From: Escherichia coli
Lineage (GTDB): Bacteria; Pseudomonadota; Gammaproteobacteria; Enterobacterales; Enterobacteriaceae
Assembly: GCF_046105845.1 (NCBI RefSeq)
Contig: NZ_CP151004.1
Direction: 5' to 3' (one strand)
Length of the DNA: 64,000 bases
Below are positions 399 through 7,944 of the stretch, piece by piece (positions within the stretch are counted from its first letter, which is position 1; the number at the start of each line of letters is the position of its first letter). The notes below the pieces were generated by a model. That model did no database searches. It saw nothing but the letters and a program-made list of their open reading frames with translations, and had not been told where the DNA came from. Position numbers and translations under genes: made by a program.

Positions 399-562
399 TT
401 TATTTATATTGCGAATATAAATATTATCTGAAAATCACACCACCTCTCTTTCCTTAATAACGATTTTACTTTAAACATTTTTATAGAAACATAATATAAA
501 TTCCCGCAGATAAATATCAATCCCATCTCCATACCCTAACCAATTGCACTTGTGAACTTATT

Positions 563-587
563 TTTACTTAATTTTGAATTAAGTAAA
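563..587 (+). promoter_or_regulatory. 11-bp inverted repeat (TTTACTTAATT-ttg-AATTAAGTAAA) in the AT-rich region upstream of the yad fimbrial operon
   Basis: Dyad read directly from sequence, about 180 bp upstream of the yadN start; binding factor unknown. Confidence 0.3.
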
Positions 588-767
588 TTTAATTTGTTCA
601 AAAGCTTCTAAAGTGCACAATAGGCGACCTAATGAACAATGGTTGTAAATTTGGGTAACAAATATCATTGCTCATTAATATCTAACATTTGTTTCTCCTA
701 TTTGTGTCATGAATAGTCATTCTTCAAACATGTAGTCTGACTAATGGAATTTTATTCAAGGATTTTT

Positions 768-1457: not shown

Positions 1458-2198
1458 ATGTTTTTTAATACAAAACATACTGTAGCATTATGCTTTGCAA
1501 CCTGTTTAGCTTTTAGCTCTTCAGCTATTGCAGATATCGTCATTTCAGGTACACGCGTTATTTACACAAGCGATCAAAAAAGTGTCAATGTACGTCTGGA
1601 AAATAAAGGCAATAACCCATTGCTGGTCCAGAGTTGGTTAGATACCGGAGATGATAACGCCGAACCTGGCAGTATCAATGTCCCATTTACGGCGACTCCC
1701 CCTGTTTCACGTATTGACGGCAAACGCGGTCAAACAATCAAGCTGATGTATACCGGCAGTTCTGCTTTACCCAAAGATCGGGAAAGTGTGTTTTGGTTCA
1801 ATGTCCTCGAAGTTCCACCAAAACCCGACGCGGAAAAAATGGCTAACCAAAGCATGTTGCAACTGGCCTTCCGTACTCGCATCAAACTGTTTTATCGTCC
1901 GGAAGGACTCACCGGAATACCGTCCGATGCTCCGGCTGCACTGAAGTGGTCGTGGACAACATCCGGCGGCAAAGTGGCGCTTCGTGTCGTTAATCCTACC
2001 CCCTTCTACGTCTCTTTCAGCAGTGGTGACGTTGTCGCCAGCGGAAAGCGTTATCCGTTAGACGTCAAAATGATCGCGCCACGCAGTGAAGATGCCATCA
2101 CAGTTAATGGGATCAGTAGCAAAGTGAGTTCTGCACAAGTTCACTTCTTTGCCATTAATGATTTTGGCGGCGCAATTGAAGGCAATGCCACTCTGTAA
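1458..2198 (+). CDS. yadV: Periplasmic PapD-like pilus chaperone
   Basis: 246-aa ORF with signal peptide and chaperone-type sequence (…FWFNVLEVPP…); position between pilin and usher genes. Confidence 0.9.
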   Translation: MFFNTKHTVALCFATCLAFSSSAIADIVISGTRVIYTSDQKSVNVRLENKGNNPLLVQSWLDTGDDNAEPGSINVPFTATPPVSRIDGKRGQTIKLMYTGSSALPKDRESVFWFNVLEVPPKPDAEKMANQSMLQLAFRTRIKLFYRPEGLTGIPSDAPAALKWSWTTSGGKVALRVVNPTPFYVSFSSGDVVASGKRYPLDVKMIAPRSEDAITVNGISSKVSSAQVHFFAINDFGGAIEGNATL

Positions 2199-2232
2199 AG
2201 TCTTCAGGATCACACGCAGCAGGAAGCAAAAC

Positions 2233-4833
2233 GTGAACAAAAAAACAACTACAAATTATCACTATCCCCTTACACATATCGCCACGTTTTGCGCACTGCT
2301 TTACAGCAGTAGTGCTTTAAGCGCCGAGCACGTTGAGTATGACAATACCTTCCTGATGGGTCGTGATGCTTCAAATATTGATCTTAGTCGCTATAGCGAG
2401 GGTAACCCAACATTACCAGGCCTTTACGACGTCAGCGTTTATATCAACGACCAGCCCGTCACCAACCAGAGCATTGCCTTTGTTACGGTTGAGGGTAAGA
2501 AAAACGCTCAGGCTTGTCTCACCCTGAAGAACTTATTGCAGTTTCATATCAATCAACCCGATATCAATGTTGCTAATGCCGTGCTGCTTGCAAGGGACAA
2601 CGAACTCGGGGATTGCCTCAACCTGGCGGAACTCATCCCCCAGACGTCGATTCGTTATGATGTCAACGATCAGCGCCTGGACATCTATGTTCCCCAGGCA
2701 TGGGTAATGAAAAATTACCAAAACTATGTTGATCCTTCCTTGTGGGAAAACGGTATCAACGCTGCAATGTTGTCTTACAACGTCAACGCATATCACAGTG
2801 AAAGCCCCGACAGGAAAAATGACAGTGTTTATGCTGCTTTTAATGGCGGTATGAATTTAGGAGCATGGCGGTTACGCGCTACCGGTAACTACAGTTGGAG
2901 GAATGATTCAGACAGTAACTATGACTTTCAGAATCGCTACCTCCAGCGCGATCTCGCATCCTTACGCTCGCAGTTAATTGTCGGTGAGTCATATACCACG
3001 GGTGAAACCTTCGATTCAGTCAGCATTCGGGGAGTTCGCTTATATAGCGACAGTCGCATGTTACCCCCTGCGTTAGCCAGTTTTGCGCCAATTATTCATG
3101 GTGTTGCGAACACTAACGCCAAGGTCACTATTACCCAGGGCAGTTATAAGATCTATGAAACCACCGTACCGCCAGGTGCGTTTGTCATCGATGATCTTAG
3201 CCCATCGGGTTACGGCAGCGATCTTATCGTCACTATTGAAGAAGCGGATGGTTCAAAGCGTACTTTCTCACAACCATTTTCATCAGTTGTACAGATGTTA
3301 CGGCCAGGCGTCGGGCGCTGGGATATCAGCGGTGGTCAGATCATAAAAGACGATATTCAAGACGAGCCCAATCTTTTTCAGGCCAGTTATTACTACGGTT
3401 TAAACAACTATCTGACCGGTTATACCGGGATCCAACTTACTGACAATCATTACACTGCCGGATTACTGGGTCTGGGCCTGAATACCTCTTTAGGTGCTTT
3501 TTCATTCGATATCACCCATTCAAATGTCAGCATTCCGGATGATAAAACCTATCAGGGGCAAAGCTATCGCCTCTCCTGGAACAAATTATTCGAAAATACC
3601 AATACATCGCTAAATATCGCGGCTTATCGCTATTCAACGCAGAATTACCTTGGCCTTAACGACGCACTGACTTTAATCGACGAAGTAAAACATCCGGAAC
3701 AGGACCTCGAACCGCAAACCATGCGTAACTACTCTCGCATGAAAAATCAGGTGACGGTCAGCATTAGCCAACCGCTGAAATTTGAGAAACAGGATTACGG
3801 TTCATTCTATCTCACCGGGGATTGGTCAGATTACTGGGCTTCCGGGCAAAATCGCAGCAATTACTCTATTGGTTACAGTAATAGCGCTTCCTGGGGGAGT
3901 TACAGCATCAGTGCACAACGTTCATGGAATGAGGATGGTGAAACGGATGATAGCATCTACCTTAGTTTCACCATTCCAATTGAAAAATTATTAGGCACAA
4001 GCCATCGCGATTCCGGTTTTCAGAGTATTGATACTCAGTTAAATAGTGATTTTAAAGGCAATAATCAGCTCAACATCAGCAGCAGTGGCTTTAGCGACGC
4101 AAATCGCGTCAGTTACAGCGTAAACACCGGCTATACAATGATGAAAGCCAGTGACGATTTAAGTTACATCGGTGGTTATGCCAGTTACGAATCGCCCTGG
4201 GGAACGCTTGCAGGTTCCGTTTCCGCAAGTAGCGATAACAGTCGTCAATTCTCGCTTAATACTGACGGTGGATTCGTGCTGCACAGCGGCGGCCTGACAT
4301 TCAGTAACGATAGCTTTAGCGACTCCGACACACTTGCCGTTGTACAAGCCCCTGGAGCAAAAGGTGCGCGCATTAACTATGGCAACAGTACAGTAGACCG
4401 CTGGGGATACGGCGTGACCAGTGCCCTCTCGCCATATCATGAAAACCGTATCGCTCTGGACATTAGCGGAATCGAAAATGATGTAGAAATGAAATCTACC
4501 AGTGCAATTGCCGTCCCTCGTCAGGGCTCTGTTGTCTTCGCCGATTTTGAAACCGTCCAGGGACAATCGGCAATCATGAATATTAAACGTACTGACGGTA
4601 AAAATATTCCATTCGCGGCGGATATCTTTGATGAACAAAATAACATGATTGGTAACGTCGGCCAGGGCGGACAAGCTTTTGTTCGAGGCATCGAACAGCA
4701 AGGTAATATCCGCATCAACTGGGTTGAAGAGGGTAAACCTGTCGCATGTATTGCCCATTATAAGCAAACAGCGGATCAACAAAAATTAACACAAACTATT
4801 ATTCTGAATGGAATTAGTTGTCAGATACAGTAA
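2233..4833 (+). CDS. htrE: Outer membrane fimbrial usher
   Basis: 894-aa ORF (2149..4833) overlaps the chaperone 3' end; GTG at 2233 preceded by AGGAAG is the more likely start (~866 aa); usher-like size and sequence. Confidence 0.88.
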   Translation: MNKKTTTNYHYPLTHIATFCALLYSSSALSAEHVEYDNTFLMGRDASNIDLSRYSEGNPTLPGLYDVSVYINDQPVTNQSIAFVTVEGKKNAQACLTLKNLLQFHINQPDINVANAVLLARDNELGDCLNLAELIPQTSIRYDVNDQRLDIYVPQAWVMKNYQNYVDPSLWENGINAAMLSYNVNAYHSESPDRKNDSVYAAFNGGMNLGAWRLRATGNYSWRNDSDSNYDFQNRYLQRDLASLRSQLIVGESYTTGETFDSVSIRGVRLYSDSRMLPPALASFAPIIHGVANTNAKVTITQGSYKIYETTVPPGAFVIDDLSPSGYGSDLIVTIEEADGSKRTFSQPFSSVVQMLRPGVGRWDISGGQIIKDDIQDEPNLFQASYYYGLNNYLTGYTGIQLTDNHYTAGLLGLGLNTSLGAFSFDITHSNVSIPDDKTYQGQSYRLSWNKLFENTNTSLNIAAYRYSTQNYLGLNDALTLIDEVKHPEQDLEPQTMRNYSRMKNQVTVSISQPLKFEKQDYGSFYLTGDWSDYWASGQNRSNYSIGYSNSASWGSYSISAQRSWNEDGETDDSIYLSFTIPIEKLLGTSHRDSGFQSIDTQLNSDFKGNNQLNISSSGFSDANRVSYSVNTGYTMMKASDDLSYIGGYASYESPWGTLAGSVSASSDNSRQFSLNTDGGFVLHSGGLTFSNDSFSDSDTLAVVQAPGAKGARINYGNSTVDRWGYGVTSALSPYHENRIALDISGIENDVEMKSTSAIAVPRQGSVVFADFETVQGQSAIMNIKRTDGKNIPFAADIFDEQNNMIGNVGQGGQAFVRGIEQQGNIRINWVEEGKPVACIAHYKQTADQQKLTQTIILNGISCQIQ

Positions 4834-4849
4834 CAACAAGGAATCTCAC

Positions 4850-5416
4850 ATGATAAAAATAGCACCCTATAAATTGGCGATACTGACGGGAATAATGTTA
4901 TCTCCTTGTGTATTAGCTACGGATATTAATGTCGAATTTACGGCAACCGTAAAAGCAACGACATGTAATATTAAGATAACCGGTAATAATGTCACCGAAG
5001 ACGGAAATGACAGTTATACGTTAACATTACCCAATATGGGTCTGGATCAAATAGTAAATAAAACCACCAGGGCCCAGGCTGACTTTACGATGGTAGCCAG
5101 TGGTTGCAGTGCAGGTATCAGCCATATTGATACTACATTGTCAGGTAATGGGTCCCGAACCTTTGATAGACTTGTTATACCGCTGTCTTCAGACACCACA
5201 TCAACCACCAGTTATATCGGTATGGGGTTCAAAAAACGTAATGCTGGTGATGAAACATTTTTAAAACCAAACAGCGCAGAAAAAATACGCTGGAGTGCAA
5301 CAGAAATTAGTACCACAGGTCTGGAAATGACCGTGGCACTACGTGAAACGAGCGCAGGTGAGGGGATACCCGGAGACTTTCGTGCTCAGGCAATTTTCAA
5401 TTTCACCTATGAATAA
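4850..5416 (+). CDS. yadM: Fimbrial minor subunit-like protein
   Basis: ORF 4808..5416; ATG at 4850 preceded by AAGGAA gives signal peptide MIKIAPYKLAILTGIMLSPCVLA; pilin-like. Confidence 0.8.
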   Translation: MIKIAPYKLAILTGIMLSPCVLATDINVEFTATVKATTCNIKITGNNVTEDGNDSYTLTLPNMGLDQIVNKTTRAQADFTMVASGCSAGISHIDTTLSGNGSRTFDRLVIPLSSDTTSTTSYIGMGFKKRNAGDETFLKPNSAEKIRWSATEISTTGLEMTVALRETSAGEGIPGDFRAQAIFNFTYE

Positions 5417-5421
5417 CAAGG

Positions 5422-6036
5422 ATGACAATGATGAAATTTAAACCTTCACGTTTTGGATTATCGACTGCAACTATTCTGGCGGCATCAGTGCTCACTTTTT
5501 CGTCATTTGCTGCGACTGATAGCGTTAAATTAAATGTAAAAACCACGGTAGAAATGGGAACCTGTACAGCCAGTCTGGTTGATGATAATGATCAAACCAT
5601 TTCTGTCGTTGCTTTTGGCGATGTTTATATTTCTGAAATCAATGCAAAAACAAAAATCAAAACCTTTAAATTACAGTTTAAAGACTGCGCGGGGATACCT
5701 GGCAAAAAAGCTAAGATTAAACTGACAAAACGTGCCACCTGTGAAGGAGCAAGTAACGACGGTCCCGGTTTTGCTAATGGCTCCACGGCTAGCGATAAAG
5801 CAAGTGCTGTTGCGGTTGAAGTGTGGAATACGAGCACTCCAGCAGTTGGTAGTGCCACACAATTCAGTTGCGTTACCCCAGCCGATCAGGAAGTGTCTAT
5901 TGCCACAGCCACGGGGAATACAGTTGTAGATTATCCGATGAGTGCGCGCCTGGTCGTGGATAAGAGTAAAACCGTAAGCGATGTTACAGCGGGCACATTT
6001 TCAGCACCAGCAACTTTCTCTGTGACATACAACTAA
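5422..6036 (+). CDS. yadL: Fimbrial minor subunit-like protein
   Basis: 204-aa ORF with signal peptide, pilin-like; start may be the internal ATG at 5431. Confidence 0.8.
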   Translation: MTMMKFKPSRFGLSTATILAASVLTFSSFAATDSVKLNVKTTVEMGTCTASLVDDNDQTISVVAFGDVYISEINAKTKIKTFKLQFKDCAGIPGKKAKIKLTKRATCEGASNDGPGFANGSTASDKASAVAVEVWNTSTPAVGSATQFSCVTPADQEVSIATATGNTVVDYPMSARLVVDKSKTVSDVTAGTFSAPATFSVTYN

Positions 6037-6062
6037 CGGCACGTCGAATTCAGGAACTGATT

Positions 6063-6659
6063 ATGCTTTCCTCTAAACGTAAAATTAAGAAAAAAACAGG
6101 TCTGTTCCTGGCATTCATATTCACTACTTCCTTTTCGGCCTTCGCCGGGCAGGATATTAATTTAACTGCGAATGTAAAAAACAGCACTTGCCAGAGCGGT
6201 ATCAGTAATCAGGGAAATATAGATCTGGGTGTGGTTGGCGTGGGCTATTTTGCTGGTAATATTCCTCCCGAGAGTTATCAGACTGGTGGTAAAGAGTTCA
6301 CCATATCGGTGAAAGACTGTGCATTTCAGGGAACAGGAAATGTCTTAAATCAACTACACATAGACTTTAGGGCACAAAGTGGTGCAATGGCTAATGGTTC
6401 CCGACAAATATTTGCCAATGAAATTTCGTCAGGGGCGAGTAATGTAGGAGTGGTTATATTTTCTATCCAGGATTCGGCGAATATATTCAATGTTCTTAAT
6501 GCTTCAGGCGGTTCTCGCTCCGTTTATCCAGTAATGTCGGATGACATGAATGGTTCGTCCTGGAAATTTAGCACCCGAATGCAAAAAATTGATCCTGCAT
6601 TGAGTGTTACATCTGGTCAACTTATGAGCCATGTGTTAGTTGATATTTACTACGAATAA
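6063..6659 (+). CDS. yadK: Fimbrial minor subunit-like protein
   Basis: 198-aa ORF with signal peptide; pilin-like. Confidence 0.8.
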   Translation: MLSSKRKIKKKTGLFLAFIFTTSFSAFAGQDINLTANVKNSTCQSGISNQGNIDLGVVGVGYFAGNIPPESYQTGGKEFTISVKDCAFQGTGNVLNQLHIDFRAQSGAMANGSRQIFANEISSGASNVGVVIFSIQDSANIFNVLNASGGSRSVYPVMSDDMNGSSWKFSTRMQKIDPALSVTSGQLMSHVLVDIYYE

Positions 6660-6708
6660 CGAACAAAAATAACACCAACTCTAACAAAAACTCAATACTG
6701 GAGTAAAA

Positions 6709-7944
6709 ATGAAGACACTCTTCAGATACTTTCTTTTTTTAGCACTGTATTCTTGTTGTTATACAGTTAGTGCATATACAAGTTTTATTGTGGGAAATAA
6801 TGCAGGAGTTGATAATTATAAAGGACCTTCCACTGCTGCACGGGTAACCTTTAATTACACATCAACAGCAAGCAACCTGGTTTTTTATAAACCCACGCAA
6901 CTCGGCCCGACAGGGGTAAAAATGTACTGGTCATACCTGGACACGGGTCCGAGTGGTATTCTTTACTGTAATACATCTGGCAGAGCAAATCCTGGGCCAA
7001 TAACCATTGAAAATGCCATGGTTTATTCAGGTAAAGATTATGGTGGACATAAACTCTTTAAGACATCTGTTCCTGGTCTGTATTACACCATGTTAATATC
7101 AAGGGTCTGGTCTGCATACAATACAACAACTGATATTCAATCACCAGGAATCTATATCGGAGACACTTCAACCCAACAATTTCACTTCTCCATAACAGAC
7201 AACGATCTACAAACCAAGGGTTGCAACAAAGCAAACAGCTACGATAAGTTTTGGGCTATTGGTGGTGTTGTACACGACATAACTGTTGAATTTTATACAG
7301 ATGCTAGTTTCGATCCTACACTTAATCAGCAAGTCCAGTTATCCAGTTCATCCGATTACCTTTATGCGTTTAAGGCCTACAGTCCAGGTACCAGAGTCGT
7401 AGATCATAGCCATCACCTTTATGTCAATTTCACACTGAATAATGTCAAATTAACCTTACCAACATGTTTTACCTCCATACTTACCGGATCATCAGTCAAT
7501 GGTTCAACGGTTAGAATGGGAGAGTATAGTTCCGGGACAATTAAAAATGGAGCGTCACCTGTTCCCTTTGATATCTCGCTTCAGAATTGTATTCGTGTGC
7601 GTAATATTGAAACAAAACTCGTCACTGGAAAAGTAGGTACTGAAAACACACAACTGCTTGGCAATACGCTTACCGGAAGTACTGCTGCTAAAGGCGTTGG
7701 CGTACTCATTGAAGGATTAGCAACCAGTAAAAATCCGCTAATGACATTAAAACCTAACGATGCAACCTCTATTTATAAAGATTATGAAACCGAAGATGAC
7801 ACATCCGATGGAGTATACCCTAATCAAGGTAGCGGCACATCACAGCCTCTTCACTTCCAGGCAACGTTAAAACAAGACGGAAATATCGCTATCGAATCCG
7901 GTGAATTCAAAGCCACCAGTACCTTCCAGGTAACCTATCCTTGA
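6709..7944 (+). CDS. yadC: Fimbrial tip adhesin-like protein (two-domain)
   Basis: 411-aa ORF with signal peptide; last gene of the chaperone-usher operon; C-terminal pilin-like strand (FQVTYP). Confidence 0.8.

Follow-up and report, generated by a model that had tools for sequence, protein, structure and literature searches.

A conserved quasi-palindrome in the H-NS-silenced spacer between folK and the cryptic yad fimbrial operon of Escherichia coli

The closest described counterparts of the DNA studied here are the promoter islands of E. coli K-12 and the promoters of its cryptic chaperone-usher operons (yad, sfm, elf/ycb and yeh), with which it shares an AT-rich composition, H-NS binding and silence in the laboratory. 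The likeness to H-NS-silenced promoter islands extends to derepression in an hns mutant and to increased expression in response to H-NS antagonists, and the folK–yadN spacer is itself on the published list: its K-12 equivalent is the H-NS-bound island 156927_379 'yadN(-)/folK(-)' (PMC3661553). The association of yadN with H-NS is marked in three genome-wide binding datasets, and the yadN transcript is 2.4-fold higher on overproduction of SlyA (PMC5797941); overproduction of BolA likewise raises yadN transcripts. In the ExPEC strain CFT073, a lux fusion carrying about 200 bp was derepressed more than 100-fold in an hns mutant and was induced by serum, and according to its authors Yad does not undergo phase variation and H-NS is its only known regulator (PMC13245861). 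That source also describes, after Larsonneur 2016, a response of Yad expression to temperature and oxygen. In a pangenome expression study a GFP fusion proved active, with expression differing between K-12-type and B1-type alleles (bioRxiv 10.1101/2025.06.10.658842). LmiA is reported not to bind PyadN. Finally, according to PMC10980228, the Rho inhibitor bicyclomycin up-regulates yadN as well as other cryptic fimbrial genes (sfmA, elfA and others). The published descriptions that we found treat the region as a whole and mention neither the inverted repeat considered below, nor its conservation, nor the C-rich tract that precedes it; the searchable published supplements contained no 3'-end or TSS entry for folK or yadN (no folK in Term-seq data).

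The window, by which we mean the whole 64-kb stretch of E. coli DNA that was analysed, begins within folK and continues through the yad operon, and its features are as follows.

1–398, + strand: 3' part of folK (HPPK), with a TAA stop at 396–398; annotated as folK in strain 1190 (99.5% identical) and in K-12
399–767, no strand: folK–yadN spacer, an H-NS-bound 'promoter island' and the silencing region of yad, assigned from GC content and from its K-12 counterpart in the published list (PMC3661553)
401–423, no strand: second perfect dyad, TATTTATATT-gcg-AATATAAATA, directly 3' of the folK stop
436–549, + strand (sense strand of folK and yadN): C-rich, G-poor rut-like tract, from GC skew and C:G counts
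555–595, no strand: extended quasi-palindrome with 19-nt arms (555–573 and 577–595) that are 84% complementary
563–587, no strand: perfect dyad TTTACTTAATT-ttg-AATTAAGTAAA, with arms at 563–573 and 577–587 and a 3-nt loop; exact sequence match, lying in a conserved island
633–680, + strand: conserved island with a candidate extended −10-like element, from the conservation profile and a promoter-like column
744–767, + strand: conserved translation-initiation region, ATGGAAT...AAGGATTTTT followed by ATG, invariant in all spacer types
768–1352, + strand: yadN, major fimbrial subunit (Pfam Fimbrial, E = 2e-12), annotated as yadN in matching genomes
1458–7944, + strand: rest of the operon, with a chaperone at 1458–2198 (PapD_N/C), an usher ORF at 2149–4833 (Usher/PapC_N/C) and four fimbrial-subunit genes (Pfam Fimbrial)
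from 8057: panB, following the operon (Pfam Pantoate_transf)

The spacer is 369 bp long and has a GC content of 27.4%, compared with about 50% in the flanking genes, reaching its minimum (25%) across 401–600; it matches the E. coli folK–yadN spacer with 99.5% identity to strain 1190 and 95% identity to K-12, whose coordinates, on the minus strand, equal 157,651 minus the window position. A sequence-only reading of this DNA had described an AT-rich control region of a cryptic chaperone-usher operon, silenced by H-NS and with neither a regulator gene nor a fim-like invertible switch of its own. This description proved right: the composition and the downstream Pfam domains agree with it, H-NS silencing is documented for the homologous region (PMC3661553, PMC5797941, PMC13245861), the Pfam content of the operon includes no regulator, and the search for an invertible switch returned weak long-range repeats and no recombinase, in concurrence with PMC13245861. 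It is well supported, and already published, that H-NS coats this AT-rich spacer and that it is the regulatory region of the cryptic Yad operon. Against this background the inverted repeat, together with its conservation at a fixed position, is a small new detail of a known system.

The two published reporters help to place the promoter relative to this repeat. By its primers, the CFT073 fragment lies at about −228 to −27 and therefore includes the whole dyad; the GFP fusion (bioRxiv 10.1101/2025.06.10.658842) starts at −200, corresponding to window position 568, inside the dyad. Since the latter fragment is still active, the conclusion that a working yadN promoter is located within roughly 200 bp of the gene, 3' of the dyad, is well supported. 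Within this stretch, we would infer a putative core promoter at 633–680, with a TSS near 659 that would put the dyad centre near −84. No conserved σ70 −35/−10 pair was found over the spacer types, and the only promoter-like element common to them is an extended −10-like column at about 644–652, which reads TGT(T)A...T here, TGTTATACT in F11 and TGTTAAATT in R7. A simple σ70 scan of the spacer returned three sites, all on the − strand, against 2.4 ± 1.5 in shuffled sequences; the published definition of promoter islands rests on a different algorithm. The 633–680 island falls within both of the active reporter fragments. A 26-sequence alignment resolves the conserved parts of the spacer into four islands, namely AATATAAATA at 414–423, the dyad, 633–680 and the ribosome-binding region. 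The spacer contains no GATC site, and a search of positions 1–1500 against Rfam families at permissive E-values gave chance matches only.

The dyad had been reported as an 11-bp inverted repeat at 563–587, and both its coordinates and its sequence are exact. Of 5000 dinucleotide-preserving shuffles of the spacer, 0.44% gave a perfect stem of 11 bp or more closed by a loop no longer than 10 nt. The 64-kb window holds six perfect hairpins whose arms reach 10 bp or more, and two of them are in the spacer (401–423 and 563–587); of the remaining four, two look like terminators (A-run, GC stem, T-run) and two are plain GC-rich. The stem of the dyad holds a single G-C pair and is otherwise A-U, with a folding energy of −6.9 kcal/mol (z = −3.2 for the 39-mer). 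As an energy test of the window's own hairpin the result is not significant: the dyad is not the best 45-nt fold of the spacer, and the best fold is itself no better than in shuffles (p = 0.34). The arm-length statistic alone, given the many intergenic regions in the window, is only suggestive, and it is because of the evidence from other lineages that we count the dyad as more than chance. The island that it forms has 11 invariant positions within the 25-nt window 558–582. The dyad matches once in the 64-kb window and at a median of one place per genome in 5426 genomes, unlike repetitive extragenic palindromes or MITEs, which have many copies per genome.

Across the 5426 complete E. coli genomes, the dyad region occurs in three deeply diverged spacer families and is always single-copy.

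K-12/B1 family, 2962 genomes: 1134 at least 99% identical to the window's 71-mer and 1826 at 95–99%
R7-type family, 1076 genomes: 551 identical to the R7 57-mer and 474 at 80–90%
F11/B2-type family, 561 genomes: 147 identical to F11, 320 at 90–95% (Nissle-like) and 80 at 80–90% (APEC O78-like)

In the 95–99% band, 15 of 18 among the matches listed are a 95.5% variant, which is presumably the B1 allele, TTTGCTTAATT/AATTAAGAAAA, carrying a single G.A mismatch. The representative E. coli genome departs from the dyad pattern at one position. The comparison between strains suggested by the sequence-only reading gave a mixed outcome: the position and the core are kept in about 85% of the 5426 genomes, and the perfect 11-bp form is limited to about 21%. 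The length and predicted stability of the stem vary as follows.

F11 and APEC O78 types: 16-bp arms; −14.9 kcal/mol, z = −7.2 for F11
metagenome allele L043: 15-bp arms; −13.0 kcal/mol, z = −6.2
Nissle type: 13-bp arms plus a G.A mismatch
window and K-12: 11-bp arms; −6.9 kcal/mol, z = −3.2
B1 type: 11 bp with one mismatch; −2.9 kcal/mol, z = −0.2
R7 type: 5–6 bp perfect (9 pairs allowing G.U); −3.8 kcal/mol, z = −1.1

The outer positions of the extended quasi-palindrome, imperfectly matched in the window, are thus fully paired in the F11/B2-type alleles with 16-bp arms and in L043; in the F11 type the arms are separated by 9 nt. Two further metagenome matches to the pattern (L036 and L048) come from unrelated organisms and were left out. 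The spacer types are only about 54–60% identical to one another, and the position of the dyad is nearly constant: in all three families its centre lies between −193 and −197 from the yadN ATG, at −193 in the A, B1 and K-12 alleles and at −196/−197 in F11 and APEC O78, and the distance from the core C to its partner G is 16 nt in nine aligned Escherichia sequences and 17 nt in E. whittamii. The synteny of folK with a fimbrial operon reaches E. albertii, E. whittamii, Escherichia sp. E1V33, Pseudocitrobacter, Citrobacter and Superficieibacter, where the pilins are only about 40% identical. The E. whittamii spacer has a 12-pair dyad, TTATTCTTAATT-taca-AATTAGGAATAA (−9.4 kcal/mol, z = −4.0); in E1V33 and E. 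albertii the left-arm motif (A/T)(C/T)TTAATT persists beside a degenerate right arm, and no comparable dyad was found in the spacers of Pseudocitrobacter, Citrobacter and Superficieibacter.

Outside the dyad, F11 and APEC O78 differ at 18.9% of positions, and in the loop at 2 of 9; in the arms they differ at 2 of 32 positions, both belonging to one and the same pair. This pair is G-C in F11, G.A in Nissle and T-A in APEC O78. Within the F11 family, then, arm divergence is 6% as against 19% in the flanks. Between E. coli type A and E. whittamii there are five arm differences, four of which make up two A-T/T-A swaps and the fifth a G.U; in a simulation, the chance that all 11 pairs survive five random substitutions was 0.001. 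In L043, a TT-to-AA change adds two adjacent pairs and brings the arms to 15 bp. Over the 8-pair core, 65 cells are Watson-Crick, six are of the G.U type on the + strand, none is A.C and one is of another kind. An asymmetry of G.U over A.C between the strands was also considered as evidence and set aside as too weak, at 7 versus 2 cells from few independent events. Among the 14 E. coli variants, 72.9% of cells are paired in the correct register, compared with 34–53% in slid registers; the column-shuffle covariation control on the same 14 variants was not significant (141/500), AT-only columns often pairing by chance. The core sequence, TTTnCTnA/TnAGnnnA, is itself conserved.

The pairwise comparisons, of F11 with APEC O78 and of E. 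coli with E. whittamii, are suggestive. Taking the evidence together, we conclude that the arm changes are mostly pair-preserving and that intrastrand complementarity appears to be really maintained; pairing would therefore matter, either through selection or through self-correction by template switching. The conserved core and the low divergence of the arms argue for some selection on the dyad, and the pattern of change, with its compensatory swaps and arms as long as 16 bp, points to base pairing rather than to a protein half-site. Positions 563–587, we largely infer, are the core of a hairpin-forming quasi-palindrome whose pairing seems to be preserved beyond the sequence alone. As judged from sequence, the dyad is a real, conserved element with the capacity to form a hairpin, and it is unlikely to be the activating switch of the operon.

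What such an element may do is suggested by its surroundings. At the dyad, a C-rich, G-poor tract that starts 3' of folK comes to its distal end: the GC skew over 401–600 is −0.48, and the last 100 nt 5' of the dyad have a C:G ratio of 22:7 here and, in five further spacer types of E. coli, of 18:4 to 31:6, with C and G roughly equal from the dyad to the yadN ATG. A scan for intrinsic terminators was negative in three spacer types (window, F11 and R7). In the usual model of a Rho-dependent terminator, of the kind used by RhoTermPredict, a C-rich, G-poor rut region is followed downstream by a hairpin at the processed 3' end, and stable stem-loops are reportedly found at the processed 3' ends of Rho-dependent transcripts. 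The locus resembles such terminators in having about 100 nt of transcribed strand with C:G of 3–5:1, followed directly by a palindrome and then by H-NS-bound DNA, in lacking an intrinsic terminator, and in the rise of the downstream yadN with bicyclomycin (PMC10980228). It is unlike them in the stem of the dyad, which is nearly all A-U and, in two common lineages, very weak. Because the dyad ends the rut-like tract and the spacer has no intrinsic terminator, a role on read-through RNA seems the most likely one, and we tentatively suggest, giving it clearly less than an even chance, that the dyad is a stem-loop in a Rho-dependent insulator against read-through from folK. On this proposal, the dyad would act on + strand RNA reading through from pcnB-folK, a constitutively expressed unit; the C-rich tract 3' of folK would be the loading site of Rho, and the stem-loop would serve either as a pause site or as a hairpin protecting a 3' end presumed to lie there. 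Hairpin, Rho and H-NS together would then shield the silent fimbrial operon from housekeeping transcription arriving from upstream. A stronger version, in which the tract and the quasi-palindrome form a conserved, selected Rho-dependent terminator/insulator and the lineage-varying strength of the stem-loop, with 16-bp arms in B2/ExPEC-type strains and a weakened form in the B1 and R7 types, sets the leakage of folK transcription into the Yad operon, we regard as distinctly unlikely. Several observations stand against an insulator. The hairpin is weak where it is commonest, and only those of F11, L043 and E. whittamii clearly beat shuffles; a pure hairpin needs no conserved core sequence; E. 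albertii retains the left arm without the right one; and the response to bicyclomycin is not specific to the yad locus.

It is possible but doubtful that the dyad works at the level of DNA, as an operator or architectural site at the upstream edge of the promoter for a dimeric H-NS antagonist (SlyA/MarR-type or LeuO-type), for a serum-responsive factor or for H-NS nucleation. Symmetric positions are invariant on both arms, the core is conserved where the flanks vary, and the left-arm motif persists in E. albertii and E1V33 despite their degenerate right arms. H-NS binds and represses the region, overproduction of SlyA or BolA raises yadN transcripts, and the CFT073 reporter that shows both H-NS repression and serum induction contains the whole dyad. 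Like the palindromic operators of MarR/SlyA-type proteins, the dyad is AT-rich and lies in a promoter region that H-NS represses, and the gene concerned responds when SlyA is overproduced. The dyad nevertheless fits neither TTAGCAAGCTAA nor TTA-N6-TAA, its TTA and TAA being 9 bp apart and its arms reaching 16 bp, and there is likewise no convincing consensus match at the dyad for ArcA, CRP, Fur, RcsAB, OmpR or the H-NS motif. The best consensus scores over it are 11/15 for ArcA, without the key G, and 13–15/20 for OmpR; for SlyA, Fur and RcsAB the only matches lie in other parts of the spacer, the window's spacer has no match to the CRP or H-NS motif, and none of the scattered matches recurs at the dyad over the spacer types. 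An ArcA site at the dyad was dropped, as the key G is missing and the ArcA ChIP-seq supplements searched have no yadN or folK peak. An operator is further disfavoured by the failure of LmiA to bind PyadN, by the 13–16 bp arms of B2-type strains, which exceed a typical dimer site, by A-T to T-A swaps on both arms, which demand co-evolving protein specificity, by the extra base between the arms in E. whittamii and by the continued activity of the reporter that begins inside the dyad. It is rather unlikely, on the other hand, that the dyad has no function at all, being a quasi-palindrome that arose by chance in AT-rich DNA and was kept by template switching during replication, a process that mimics compensatory evolution. 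Quasi-palindromes are hotspots of template-switch mutation in E. coli, where imperfect repeats become more perfect (PMC7202029), and the lineage-specific changes seen here raise arm complementarity in just this way: the clustered two-base TT-to-AA change in L043, which perfects two adjacent pairs at once, is a template-switch signature. An arm length ranging from 5–6 bp to 16 bp between lineages is what would be expected without strong selection, and neither published reporter needed to take the dyad into account. The hotspots of PMC7202029 are known from mutation of reporter genes, however, whereas the dyad persists over species with a conserved core, suggesting some constraint. It is also a conservation peak (the 6% and 19% of the F11 family), keeps a fixed position relative to the ATG between spacer types that are so dissimilar, and coincides with a compositional boundary; template switching accounts for its symmetry but not for its constant core sequence.

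The remaining explanations fare worse. A supercoiling-sensitive cruciform that alters the access of H-NS or RNA polymerase, and ties yad to temperature, osmolarity or oxygen, would be in line with perfect arms of 11–16 bp that are almost all A-T in AT-rich flanks, with single-stranded DNA folds of −6.8 kcal/mol for type A and −11.7 for F11, and with the temperature and oxygen response of Yad described, after Larsonneur 2016, in PMC13245861. Extrusion is disfavoured, however, by the 9-nt spacer of F11 and by the mismatches of B1 and R7, and the reporter plasmids behave without reference to the dyad, so we consider a cruciform improbable. An intrinsic (Rho-independent) terminator of pcnB-folK is very improbable: TTTAATTTGTT follows the stem in types A and B1, but the stem has a single G-C pair and lies 165 nt past the stop codon, the F11-type alleles have no T-run 3' of it, and the scan was negative here as well as in the F11 and R7 spacers. 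As for a phase-variation switch, whether invertible as in fim or Dam/Lrp-dependent as in pap, nothing speaks for it beyond the presence of an inverted repeat 5' of a fimbrial operon, and it is effectively refuted. The locus shares with fimS and with the GATC/Lrp switch of pap the placement of a cis element 5' of the gene for a chaperone-usher major subunit; it differs from them in having no repeats flanking a promoter, no recombinase, no GATC sites in the spacer and no local regulator such as a papI/papB-like gene. Arms 3 nt apart are unable to flank an invertible promoter, the long-range inverted repeats are just 12–16 nt long with 75–92% match, and Yad is published as not phase-variable (PMC13245861).

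The interest of the dyad lies partly in the operon that it precedes, Yad fimbriae being a serum-induced colonisation factor of ExPEC (PMC13245861), and partly in its position: bordering the minimal promoter fragment on the upstream side, this conserved cis element makes a concrete, cheap target for mutagenesis. Were the stronger version of the proposal to be true, with stem-loop strength setting the leakage from folK, it could contribute to the lineage-specific expression of yadN seen in the pangenome expression GWAS (bioRxiv 10.1101/2025.06.10.658842) and to the induction of Yad in ExPEC. If the dyad is an insulator, it would provide an example of Rho, H-NS and RNA/DNA structure cooperating where a housekeeping operon borders on a fimbrial one that is silenced and horizontally mosaic, with allelic variation of the boundary tuning expression between lineages. 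If it is inert, it would be a natural quasi-palindrome held symmetric by template switching. Either outcome would be incremental rather than surprising.

In the second perfect dyad of the spacer, at 401–423, the right arm, AATATAAATA at 414–423, is invariant over the spacer types and the left arm is not; the 45-mer of the spacer that folds best is likewise located directly 3' of the folK stop in two further species of Escherichia.

Immediately 3' of the folK stop, the AT-rich folK-yadN spacer carries a second perfect dyad, and two conserved elements lie closer to yadN, the first gene of the chaperone-usher operon (ATG at 768):

401-423, second perfect dyad with AT-only arms, TATTTATATT-gcg-AATATAAATA, immediately 3' of the folK stop
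644-652, conserved extended -10-like element, TGT(T)A...T, within minimal active promoter fragments
672-678, conserved TCATTAA block, within minimal active promoter fragments

Across the diverged spacer types of E. coli, the right arm AATATAAATA is the sole invariant part of the 401-423 dyad, and TC.G.AAA, just 3' of this arm, is likewise invariant (conserved stretch 414-434). Since only these parts are shared, it is the sequence itself, not the dyad, that is conserved here. The spacers of E. whittamii and Escherichia sp. E1V33 likewise have their best-folding 45-mer immediately past the folK stop.

As to transcription, the top sigma-70-like match of the spacer (TTGATA-16-TATATT, 10/12, window 493-520, minus strand) is oriented antisense into folK, away from yadN, and is of the spurious promoter type expected of an H-NS 'promoter island'. 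The 644-652 element together with the 672-678 block are candidates for the yadN core promoter and early 5' UTR.

The placement of a chaperone-usher operon immediately 3' of folK is kept in several genera, as seen at four loci (L013, L016, L017 and L019), which come from other Enterobacteriaceae and a divergent E. coli. At these loci pilin identity is only about 40% and the spacers are not alignable; all four spacers are AT-rich (28-32% GC), with C exceeding G on the sense strand.

The operon itself is a mosaic when window 1458-4833 is compared with K-12 and strain 1190. The spacer and yadN resemble those of K-12 (about 95% identity). The chaperone protein has just 84% identity to its counterpart in the genome that represents E. 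coli in GTDB (strain SCPM-O-B-8794), and its ORF overlaps that of the usher, an arrangement shared with strain 1190 but not with K-12. This combination is taken as a sign of recombination inside the operon.

In a metagenome contig (SKEN01001486.1; L044:1-1972), an AT-rich foreign segment breaks an R7-type spacer, with the junction at the 3' edge of the right arm of the 11-bp dyad (563-573/577-587), about 171 nt upstream of the yadN ATG. The segment has no copy in any of 5426 complete E. coli genomes and contains a partial ORF whose match to Phage_integrase stays below threshold (24.1 bits; cut-off, 27.1 bits). The segment may be either an integrative element that exploits the palindrome or an assembly chimera. 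IS1 events affect the spacer in strains AHB18 (L010:1445-1510) and 2018-01-1CC (L003:1651-2566). In one, the whole control region has given way to an IS1 end that sits about 10 bp before the yadN ATG. In the other, an IS1 around window 531 accompanies loss of the entire yad operon, of which only a yadC remnant adjoining panB is left.
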